DNA of 49,802 nucleotides from a virus. Taxonomy: Duplodnaviria > Heunggongvirae > Uroviricota > Caudoviricetes. Position numbers: made by a program. Shown here piece by piece: positions 24,001 through 27,000 of this stretch; the first letter of the stretch is position 1, and each line of letters begins with the position of its first letter. The stretch spans positions 1 to 49,802 of IMG/VR virus record IMGVR_UViG_2541047795_000003. One strand, 5' to 3'.

Positions 24001-27000
24001 GTTTCTGGATGAAAAGGAAGGTAACCACACCACGGCATACCGTGATGGCGCGGGTATCTGGACCATCTGCCGCGGTGCCATCCTGGTGGATGGCAAACCT
24101 GTCGTTCCGGGCATGAAGTTGTCGAAGGAAAAATGCGACCGGGTTAACGCCATTGAGCGTGATAAGGCGCTGGCATGGGTGGAGAAAAACATCAGAGTGC
24201 CATTGAGTGAACCCCAGAAAGCGGGGATCGCGTCATTCTGTCCGTACAACATTGGCCCCGGTAAGTGTTTTCCGTCGACGTTTTATAAACGAATTAATGC
24301 AGGTGATCGCAGGGGAGCGTGTGAGGCGATTCGCTGGTGGATTAAGGACGGTGGCAGGGACTGCCGTATTCGCTCAAATAACTGTTACGGTCAGGTATCC
24401 CGTCGTGACCAGGAGAGCGCGCTGGCGTGCTGGGGAATCGACAGATAAGCAGAATATTTTGCTAATAAATGACGTTGGCCAAGGCGGACGGATAACACGA
24501 AATCCTGCGAACTGGCAAAATGTAAGTGAATAAAAGTAAAAACCCCGTTTGTTGGCAGCAAGCGGGGTTTTGTTTTTATGGCAGTAAGCTATGGGAGGCT
24601 GCCTTGATTGATTTTAGCAAACTGATTAGGGAGTTGCGACTCATGATTAGTCAATTACCAAACTGGAAATTTTTGCTGGTCTGGAGCATCCCTTTTTTAT
24701 GGGTAGTATCCCAGTTAATTGTGGCAATTAAGGGGTAGCTATGTCAGACAAACTCATAACGCCGGCAAAGGTCCTGTGTGTGATTGTCGGTATTTCATTT
24801 TCACTAATGCTGGTTGCTCTTTTTCTGTCCCTCGCCTGGGTGATGTTGTCTTCGTCGGGGCTGCTGGGGTGACAGTGACTGATGACATCAGCAGAGCGCT
24901 GGCTTTTGCTATTAAGTGGGTGGCTGTTGGTATTGCTGTGTCTCCGATGCTGTATGGGCTGGCAAAACTGGTCATTGCGCTGAAATCGTGAACTTTAAAA
25001 AGATGAGTGCTGAACTTATTCGGGCAATGGCATTTGCCATTCGTATTGTGGCCATTGCTGTTCTGGTCTGGGCAATCCGTTGGTGGTGATATGAACCGTG
25101 TTCTGTGTGTGGTGATTATTGTCCTGCTGGTAGCCTGTGGTGTGCTTAGTCTGGGGCTGAATCATTACCGCGATAACGCCATCACCTACAAAGCGCAGCG
25201 CGATAAAAAAGTCAGTGAGCTGAAACTGGCGAACGCGACAATTACTGATATGCAGATACGCCAGCGTGATGTCGCTGAACTTGATGCCAGATACTCGAGG
25301 GAATTAGCCGATGCGAGAGCTGAAAATGAAACTCTGCGTGCTGATGTTGCCGCTGGTCGTAAGCGCCTGCGGATCAACGCCACCTGCTCCGGTACCGTGC
25401 GTGAAGCCACCGGCACCTCCGGCGTGGATAATGCAACCGGCCCCCGACTGGCAGACACCGCTGAACGGGATTATTTCATCCTCAGAGAACGGTTGATGAC
25501 AATGCAGAAGCAGCTGGAAGGGGCGCAGGAATATATCCGCACTCAGTGCACTAAGCTGGCTTTTTATTATCCGGAGGATACATGAAGAAATTACGGGTAA
25601 CCGTAGAACCTTTTCAGGGAACAATTCCGTTCCGTATTTTGCAGCGTGGTCGTGTTCTTGTTGAAGGTTCGTTCAGTGGTAAATGTACGCAATTACACTC
25701 CCGGACCTTTCAGGTGAATGCCACGAATGAAGAGCTAACCGTGGAGTGTACGATGAATGCCGCTAAATGCCGCATGGTATCCGCTGCATTACAACCAGTG
25801 TGTTGAGCGACCTTATTATCCATGCGCGGTATTGTCGCCGTATTCCTGCATTAACAGAGACCGCAGCCCGACAGGGAGACTCCTCTGCGCGAGTGTGCGG
25901 GGATAATCAAAAACGATACACACCGGGGTTTACCGCGTTAACGGAGCGCGGCGTTGTCCCCTCATAGTCGCCTGTCCGGTGCGATGGTGGAAGAAACCGA
26001 ACGTTCATTTCTCGTTATTTGTCATGCTGGCCGGGCGCAGATGCGTTGCATCTGTTGCCAGCCTTCTCCTGCAGGCTTCAATAACCCACGCTGAAAAGTT
26101 ACCGGACCCTTTATGCTCAAGGGCGATGTTGATCTGTTCAATTATGTGATTGGGGAAACGGATATTGCGGGTTGTGGTTCTGCGGGTCCGGTTTTTCGAT
26201 GACATATTTATTTCCTTTACTGATTGCCATATGACGGGGATTTTACATGGCTGAGCTTCGTACACTCCAGAGCAGAATCAAAACACTGAATACCCGACGG
26301 GTGAATATTCTGAAGGGGGAGCAGCGTCGTGTCAGTGGCAGTGCACGTGTTTCCCTCAAGCGTCATATCTGGCTGAGGGACGCCGGGCAGTGCTGTATCT
26401 GTGGTCGTGTGGTTGACCTCTGTGACAGTGAACTCGATCACCGAATTGCACTTCAGTTCGGTGGTGGTAATGAGGAGACGAATCTTTGGACGCTCTGTGC
26501 CGAATGCCATCGACAAAAGTCTGCTCGTGAAGCGGCGAGTGGTATGCCGGACCCGACGCTGCCGGAGGTGTCCGGAGGTAGTGGCAGAGAGGACGACATC
26601 ATCGGACTGTAACCCAACCCGGGGGGGTATCATCCGGCGTAAAAAACGATCGCTTTGGACACCGCGCCCCCTCTCACGCAGAGAAAAAATTCCCGTTTCA
26701 GGGCAGTTAACATGTTAACTGGCTGCCCGGGCATTTTTGCGGTTTTTATCTTTATTATTCAGTTTGTTGTGCGGAAAAAATGTTAACAGGCTTTTTCAGC
26801 AAATGTTAACCAGGCAGCAGTTAACATTTGCGGCATGAGACGCCGGGAAAAATGGGCTGAACCATACCCGGCTGAGTGCGTTCTGGACCCGGGAGGAGGC
26901 TGTGCTGACAACGCAAAAACGAAAATTTGCGCTGGCGCTCATGTCCGGGAAAAACAAAACAGCGTCAGCCATTGCCGCCGGTTATTCGGCGAAGACCGCC

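Follow-up and report, generated by a model that had tools for sequence, protein, structure and literature searches.

A variable array of single-helix micro-protein genes between the endolysin and spanin genes of an Escherichia coli lambdoid prophage

Related lysis, exclusion and toxin proteins

In phages lambda and 21 the endolysin gene R is directly followed by the spanin gene Rz, and in the K-12 Qin prophage R directly overlaps Rz (rrrQ and rzpQ). The stretch of DNA analyzed here, referred to throughout as the window, is an E. coli lambdoid prophage of 49,802 nucleotides (nt; IMG/VR record IMGVR_UViG_2541047795_000003) in which the lysozyme gene and Rz are separated by a gap of 642 nt. The first 130 nt of this gap end in a terminator, and behind it, as an earlier note had read directly from the sequence, lie four micro open reading frames (ORFs) arranged back to back and here termed p1 to p4. 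The view that they constitute a translationally coupled coding block, inserted between R and Rz of a phage-21-type cassette, is borne out by frame-specific selection, conservation of length, modular reuse and ribosome footprints on a p2 homologue.

The antiholins and accessory lysis membrane proteins, which include lambda S107, phage 21 S21-71, P2 LysA and Mu gp25 ("releasin"), are small and non-essential and act on timing or on endolysin release; P2 lysA lies between the endolysin and spanin genes. By analogy, these would be the nearest functional counterparts of the array. The likeness is one of position and size only, the location between endolysin and spanin being shared with P2 LysA. There is no sequence similarity, and the array peptides are smaller (28-44 amino acids, aa), possess one predicted transmembrane (TM) helix and form a variable array, whereas each of the known proteins is the product of one gene.

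Class I and class II holins possess two or more TM stretches, as against one in each array peptide. The charged hydrophilic C-terminal tail of holins is also missing, the flanks beyond the hydrophobic stretch consisting of 2-16 residues with a net charge of 0 to +1. The peptides have no Pfam match at E ≤ 1, the S21 pinholin family (PF04971) included, and comparison with that family using hhalign gives a probability of 1.3%. A single BLASTP comparison of p3 (E = 0.005) had raised the idea that p3 and p4 mimic transmembrane domain 2 (TMD2) of the S21 pinholin, but in view of the hhalign value this was rejected. A 554-bp contig in ENA (P0062) encodes a predicted protein of 59 aa in which the N-terminus of an S21 holin is fused to the C-terminus of p3 at "W-x-A-x-G"; it may be a genuine recombinant, or else a product of misassembly.

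An i-spanin consists of an N-terminal TM segment and a long periplasmic coiled coil, while o-spanins and u-spanins carry a lipobox with its cysteine. The array peptides have no more than 16 residues outside the helix and no lipobox, and the actual spanin genes, Rz and Rz1, begin downstream at 25091 and 25311. The disruptin-type peptide phiKT gp28 is strongly cationic and amphipathic and replaces the spanin; the array peptides, by comparison, carry a net charge of only +1 to +3 with a grand average of hydropathy (GRAVY) of 1.1-1.6 (forms tested), and a spanin pair is present in the window. The type I toxins Hok, TisB, ShoB and Ldr are hydrophobic single-helix peptides of 25-50 aa, the expression of which is kept low. 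The array differs from them in having no cognate antisense RNA at the Rfam threshold and in forming an operon within late phage genes. Moron-encoded exclusion proteins, of which HK97 gp15 is an example, resemble the array in being small membrane proteins specified between late genes, patchy in occurrence and lower in GC content. Classical morons are organized as promoter, gene and terminator; here the terminator lies upstream, no promoter was detected, and the last gene is coupled to Rz. The PADLOC defence profiles gave no matches at E ≤ 1 for eight peptides.

The supposition that the ORFs are unannotated proved incorrect. The NCBI annotation pipeline (PGAP), applied to identical DNA, has three or four of them as hypothetical proteins; RefSeq contains entries identical to the array peptides (WP_001043230, WP_001280935, WP_042004856 and WP_032140280); and all four match PHROG families (phrog_6632; phrog_4906; phrog_3246/1115/4493), none with an assigned function. 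Several of the existing gene models (70, 51 and 90 aa) use unsupported starts. A comparative paper on Shiga toxin (Stx) phages makes no mention of these ORFs. As annotation the array is already known, in the form of hypothetical proteins, PHROGs and one homologue supported by ribosome profiling (RIBOseq). Added here are the selection on all four frames, corrected gene models, the description of the p1 unit, and the finding that the endolysin-spanin junction draws on at least six shuffled families in cassettes of three types.

Gene models and coding evidence

The interval between the lysozyme gene and Rz contains the following features:

24449-24578, plus strand: conserved module behind the lysozyme gene, with a strong intrinsic terminator of bidirectional appearance at its end (terminator scan, RNA folding)
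24604-24738, plus strand: p1, 44 aa from its most likely start, a TTG (Shine-Dalgarno GGGAGG), with one predicted C-terminal TM helix (phrog_6632; homologues of 44-45 aa; substitution ratio)
24741-24872, plus strand: p2, predicted single-TM micro-protein of 43 aa from ATG (phrog_4906, E = 4.5e-21)
24869-24991, plus strand: p3, 40 aa from GTG, with an alternative GTG start at 24875 (phrog_3246, phrog_1115 and phrog_4493; best E = 1.9e-27)
25003-25089, plus strand: p4, 28 aa from ATG, or 33 aa if the in-frame GTG at 24988 were used; a paralogue of p3 (phrog_4493, E = 3.8e-6)

Alleles were drawn from about 280 related loci, and substitutions were counted along a minimum spanning tree of the alleles. 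Scans of IMG/VR with single peptides gave near-identical copies; the diversity came by way of divergent protein matches. In the claimed frame of each ORF there is an excess of synonymous changes, the ratio of non-synonymous to synonymous substitution (dN/dS) being approximately 0.20 for the p1 core (about 0.2-0.3; p = 7e-6), 0.35 for p2 (p = 1e-13), 0.24 for p3 (p = 5e-10) and 0.41 for p4 (p = 0.008). No such excess is found in the other two frames (dN/dS about 0.8-4). All four ORFs are genuine genes under purifying selection, and the frames are kept in related prophages. No larger gene holds these segments: every homologue found is of 90 aa or less, with none above that length in 5.8 billion clustered proteins or in a hidden Markov model (HMM) search of 1.84 billion representatives. 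The interval is therefore not the debris of a larger gene.

Each peptide contains a single hydrophobic stretch, the best 17-aa Kyte-Doolittle windows scoring 1.9-2.8, which agrees with the one membrane helix originally predicted for each. The AlphaFold2 model of p3 is a single helix spanning residues 2-39, with a predicted local distance difference test (pLDDT) score of 93. The ribosome-binding sequences and coupled stop/start arrangements are likewise present. The ATG of p2 lies 2 nt past the TAG of p1 and is preceded by the Shine-Dalgarno sequence AAGGGG; the GTG of p3 overlaps the TGA of p2 (GTGA); and the TGA of p4 ends 1 nt before the ATG of Rz at 25091, so that the last codons of p4 provide the Rz Shine-Dalgarno sequence (GGTGGTGA).

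The first gene had been proposed to run from an ATG (24643-24738, 31 aa). The frame stands; the start most likely does not, since the frame is open further upstream and a product of 44 aa from TTG 24604 is favoured. This TTG, with GGGAGG 5 nt upstream, is very probably the start because the N-terminal motif that it brings in, IDFSKLIRELR, is conserved in homologues of other genera. The p1 homologues, of 44-45 aa, begin at an equivalent GTG, TTG or ATG, share the N-terminus x-DFSK(L/I)IRE-x-R-x-M, and come from Enterobacter, Citrobacter, Klebsiella, Salmonella, Providencia and a Pseudomonas phage; the Pseudomonas copy specifies the same motif with different codons. In this family ATG 24643 corresponds to an invariant internal methionine (position 14), preceded by the GTG or TTG start, an arrangement that may or may not amount to a dual-start motif of the holin kind, by which one frame yields two products. 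Short forms of p1 do exist, as the variant located 3′ of an inserted antirepressor (ANT) gene is of 31 aa and begins MKMIKMD. The PGAP model of 70 aa was rejected, since it would run through the terminator; against phrog_6632 this form scores E = 1.3e-12 and the 31-aa form E = 6e-5.

The length of p2 is fixed at 43 aa among homologues of 65-98% identity. Two of these are found in E. coli O157:H7 Sakai, namely XECs191 (= ECs_1966) and ECs_5707, the latter in the Stx2 prophage Sp5. They lie between an antirepressor gene and Rz (Sp10, Sp5), are approximately 65% identical to p2 of the window and are not accompanied by p3 or p4. XECs191 was reported as a novel translated gene in O157:H7 Sakai on the basis of RIBOseq (Hücker et al. 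2017; PMC5597208), with 30.0 reads per kilobase per million (RPKM) for RNA and 12.6 RPKM for footprints in LB; a location in the inner membrane and one TM helix were predicted for it (PMC5597208).

The relationship between p3 and p4 is upheld by the invariant positions of their alignment and by bridging forms: a peptide of 38 aa with a p4-like N-terminus and the C-terminus of p3, a p4 of 37 aa with a p3-like N-terminus, and forms of p3 ending in RWW. What failed was the argument that their DNA differences are largely synonymous. Over the 17-codon match the DNA identity is 57%, and 7 of the 22 differing nucleotides fall in synonymous codons as opposed to 15 that are non-synonymous. Homologues of p3 possess the same conserved core behind different N-termini, for example MKNGLELKAP-VTDD. 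The PGAP model of 51 aa and an ORF of 90 aa were both rejected for p3: their N-terminal extensions run into a frame with dN/dS above 1, and the short p3 together with p2 is therefore the correct pair of models. With regard to p4, its 28-aa counterpart in an O169:H41 prophage is without the upstream GTG.

Distribution, mosaic architecture and neighbouring genes

Part of the interval is found in 2,078 of 5,426 complete E. coli genomes, 587 of which contain the full four-gene array, and in 203 phage records, mainly those of Stx-converting phages; peptide homologues are present in H-19B and in the Sakai Stx2 prophage. Related cassettes hold one to five peptides. The order in the window is R>p1>p2>p3>p4>Rz, and other junctions read R>p3>p2>Rz, R>p2>Rz, R>p4(37 aa)>Rz, R>ANT>p1>p2>Rz (with or without p3 and p4), R>p3>p2>methyltransferase>Rz, and R>p5>p3>p6>p4>Rz. 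The last of these is the O169:H41 prophage (locus L186, 1162-1865), where five micro-ORFs lie between R and Rz, including members of two extra single-TM families, p5 (34 aa, MTPKAANIAGIILALSAMIGAIGFAVAAIAYVCR) and p6 (49 aa, dN/dS about 0.17). An unrelated cassette composed of holin_8, holin_3_7 and a glycoside hydrolase family 108 (GH108) endolysin is followed by terminator>(p5/p6)>p3>p2>60-aa lipoprotein. In locus L189 (1071-2461) and about 45 similar loci the order is terminator>p6>p3>p2 and then the 60-aa lipoprotein (phrog_7528); no recognizable Rz occurs in the stretch retrieved for this GH108 cassette.

Three unrelated kinds of cassette have the peptides behind their endolysin (R21 lysozyme with S21 holin; GH108 with holin_8 and holin_3_7; GH19 with a spanin pair), and in each cassette inspected a terminator hairpin lies between the endolysin and the peptides. 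The array of the window is one variant of a mosaic at the endolysin-spanin junction, to which at least six families of micro-proteins (p1-p6) contribute. Its GC content is 46% (0.385 for p1), compared with 52% for the window and 53-55% for R and Rz.

The p1 family is also found away from the lysis genes. Of 80 IMG/VR loci with a member of this family, 79 specify a product of 45 aa, 71 begin with GTG and 3 with TTG, and 76 have a hairpin of -15 kcal/mol or stronger 20-90 nt upstream. With respect to context, 31 of the loci are R21>Rz junctions, 15 are in baseplate regions, 6 lie behind GH19 or GH108 endolysins, 5 have only the downstream Rz identified, one is beside tail gene J, one is beside a minor-tail gene, and 22 are unplaced. 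In Enterobacter prophages the family is located between a GH19 endolysin and an overlapping spanin pair. A lone 45-aa gene in the layout R>terminator>p1-like>Rz occurs in 899 of the 5,426 E. coli genomes; it is without annotation in all eight records listed for that search, and likewise in phage H-19B (AF034975.3, positions 17551-17685). Units of the p1 family, examples being those of the window (24604-24738) and of the retrieved loci L293 (H-19B; 2001-2138), L289 (2160-2297), L292 (2495-2632) and L291 (2498-2644), are nearly always located approximately 30 nt behind a strong A-tract/hairpin/T-tract terminator. When one genome of each bacterial species was scanned with the p2 profile, the outcome was a single contig of 328 bp; p2 and p3/p4 therefore appear, from these searches, to be confined to prophages of Escherichia, Shigella and Salmonella, while p1 is broader.

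The strong terminator noted after the endolysin was recovered by the terminator scan as a 15-bp stem (24539-24571) with a T-run to 24578. The 134-nt stretch 24449-24582, which ends in this hairpin, folds at -43 kcal/mol (z = -3.6), and a module of 129 nt following the lysozyme stop recurs as an independent unit in many E. coli genomes, whatever comes after it. It matches no Rfam family at threshold, and the prophage Pas small RNAs sit upstream of the holin; the module may be a terminator only or also a small RNA derived from the 3′-UTR. In the Rfam search of the interval no family reaches its gathering score, the best match being ohsC with 21.6 bits versus 50 and covering the terminator only. 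Directly after the lysozyme stop (24449-24470) lies the motif CAGAATATTTTGCT, which is found again at the distal boundary of the peptide genes in the GH108 cassette (L189, 2476-2497) and may be a recombination linker between modules.

The genes surrounding the array are as follows:

23007-23222, plus strand: S21-type class II (pin)holin, 71 aa, with an MYQM dual-start motif (Pfam PF04971, E = 2e-32; PGAP coordinates on identical DNA)
23227-23571: YdfR/DUF1327 gene, between the pinholin and the signal-anchor-release (SAR) lysozyme
23537-23809, minus strand: ORF of 90 aa (phrog_2411, full-length match, E = 9e-59; hypothetical in RefSeq)
23915-24448, plus strand: R21-type lysozyme with a hydrophobic N-terminal (SAR-like) segment, MNAKIRYGLSAAVLALIAAGAPAP (Pfam PF00959, E = 1e-23)
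25091-25585, plus strand: Rz i-spanin of the lambda type (Pfam PF03245, E = 2e-49)
25311-25496, plus strand: Rz1 o-spanin frame inside Rz (ORF list; PF06085 matches at homologous loci)

The YdfR/DUF1327 gene splits the S-R junction too, and the minus-strand ORF is antisense within the lysis cassette, overlapping the 3′-end of ydfR. Downstream, an ORF of 74 aa (25582-25806) overlaps the Rz stop codon (ATGA); it matches only positions 100-172 of the 291-position phrog_2571 and is probably a truncated remnant. Elsewhere in the prophage (19721-19914, 20190-20378, 19298-19454, 14598-14769 and 5008-5487) Rfam matches comprise two STnc100, two tRNAs, sok, C4, isrK and DicF; the sok antitoxin RNA implies a hok-type locus.

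Expression, proposed role and alternatives

A simple consensus scan for plus-strand sigma-70-like promoters in 22500-26500 found none, and the distance from the T-run to the start codon of p1-family genes is only about 25-35 nt. Since no promoter of its own was found and a strong terminator stands directly upstream, we infer that the array is transcribed only when Q-antiterminated late transcription crosses the terminator. Both the terminator and the use of starts other than ATG point to expression being kept low or late by design. In the Sakai RIBOseq data the holin gene ECs1962, which belongs to the same prophage as XECs191, has RNA and footprint values of 27.1 and 10.9 RPKM, compared to 30.0 and 12.6 for XECs191; near-equal densities are as expected if the two are on one late transcript.

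We tentatively propose, with somewhat less than even confidence, that the window carries four coupled genes for inner-membrane micro-proteins which are expressed late by read-through of the terminator and serve as accessory modulators of the membrane steps of lysis; the specific lysis-modulating role, taken alone, is doubtful. The genes p1-p4 (44, 43, 40 and 28 aa) are co-oriented and translationally coupled, and in this proposal each product would cross the inner membrane once. Q-modified transcription would read through the terminator, and the peptides would join the holin, the endolysin and the spanin as the lytic cycle closes. Acting in the cytoplasmic membrane, by helix-helix contacts or mild depolarization, they would tune holin triggering, SAR-endolysin release or spanin activation and would not carry out lysis themselves. 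Recombination would shuffle p1-p6 at the endolysin-spanin junction of enterobacterial prophages. That the peptides are accessory and dispensable is indicated by the one to five found in related cassettes and by K-12 Qin, in which R overlaps Rz directly.

Several observations weigh against this proposal. There is no homology to lysis proteins, Pfam, NCBIfam and PADLOC giving nothing beyond the families themselves, and the HMM search of 1.84 billion proteins with the p3/p4 profile retrieved 14 family members and nothing else. No functional study was found in the literature on small proteins of lysis cassettes or on the lysis genes of Stx phages, or by locus tags and peptide sequences. Members of the p1 family lie between genes for the baseplate spike and wedge (Salmonella phage SEN34, a Klebsiella prophage), adjoin tail gene J in Citrobacter, and occur in the tail region of Pseudomonas phage YMC11/02/R656; such placement speaks for a generic moron of late operons more than for a factor specific to lysis. 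Because the peptides occur with SAR/pinholin cassettes as well as with canonical holin cassettes, they point to no one partner. The Sakai signal is low, comes from uninduced cultures and is possibly blurred by multi-mapping among prophages, and the promoter result carries the caveat that it derives from a simple consensus scan.

The main alternative, favoured by the p1-family genes in tail and baseplate clusters distant from those for lysis, is that the peptides are morons of benefit to the lysogen or phage, through superinfection exclusion or blocking of injection (as with HK97 gp15) or another form of lysogenic conversion, lodged at permissive late-operon junctions of which R-Rz would be a hot spot. 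This junction does take unrelated cargo (the ANT antirepressor, an N6_N4 methyltransferase, the 60-aa lipoprotein), occurrence is patchy among otherwise near-identical cassettes, and the GC content given above lies below that of the window, R and Rz. On the other hand, no promoter-like site is found, nor is there room for one between the terminator and the start of p1-family genes; the array has its terminator in front, where classical morons have theirs behind; translation of the last peptide is coupled to that of Rz; and the footprint density equals that of the holin but does not exceed it. On balance we regard this explanation as somewhat unlikely. It overlaps, as does the lysis-modulator proposal, with a toxin-like role, in which membrane-toxic peptides, depolarizing the membrane in the manner of type I toxins or holins and silenced by the terminator and weak GTG/TTG starts, would constitute an auxiliary lysis trigger or an addiction or abortive-infection module. 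Their size and hydrophobicity are like those of the TisB, Hok and Ldr-class toxins, and the prevalence in the p1 family of GTG (71/80) and TTG (3/80) starts and of a strong upstream hairpin (76/80) suggests enforced low expression. The weak, sub-threshold resemblance of the terminator alone to ohsC (21.6 versus 50 bits) is of the same tendency, since ohsC is the RNA that counteracts the hydrophobic peptide ShoB; at threshold, however, the Rfam search gave no antitoxin RNA. The one minus-strand promoter-like site, at 24747-24718, is a 9/12 match within chance expectation, and it lies in codons that differ in variant p1 alleles, where the hexamers are seemingly lost (judged from protein sequences). 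Moreover, the genes are co-translated with Rz as an operon, unlike stand-alone toxin loci, and the peptides have neither a holin-type charged C-terminus nor significant similarity to S21 (hhalign 1.3%). A toxin-like role is accordingly considered distinctly unlikely.

There remains the explanation that the frames are non-functional, having arisen by chance or as debris of a larger decayed gene or of repeated recombination. The starts are ambiguous, PGAP calling 70 aa and 51 aa and a 90-aa ORF overlapping p2; some genomes hold frameshifted or truncated alleles; and p1 and p4 look as if an insertion had divided an ancestral gene of 45 aa and left them as its ends. Set against these features are frame-specific purifying selection on all four ORFs, strict lengths (43 aa for p2; 45 aa in 79/80 loci for the p1 family), the lack of any homologue above 90 aa in the searches made, and the ribosome footprints on a homologue of p2, by which this very improbable reading is essentially excluded.

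The lysis-modulator proposal can be extended into a more speculative form, which we think unlikely. The array would then consist of interchangeable, terminator-gated modifiers of the lysis clock that bind the TM segments of holin, SAR-endolysin or spanin, and the p1 unit (hairpin, GTG/TTG start, 45 aa) would be a mobile regulatory cassette ranging from Escherichia to Pseudomonas. Were this true, it is such modifiers that would determine when Stx phages and other lambdoid phages lyse their host or how large their burst is.

Diagrams of Stx-converting prophages and their relatives usually show plain S-R-Rz, although the array places genes for a compact set of conserved membrane micro-proteins at the R-Rz junction. 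If the peptides tune the timing of lysis, they would affect phage burst and also the release of Shiga toxin, since it is through phage lysis that the toxin escapes; a role in exclusion would instead influence which phages are able to superinfect pathogenic E. coli.

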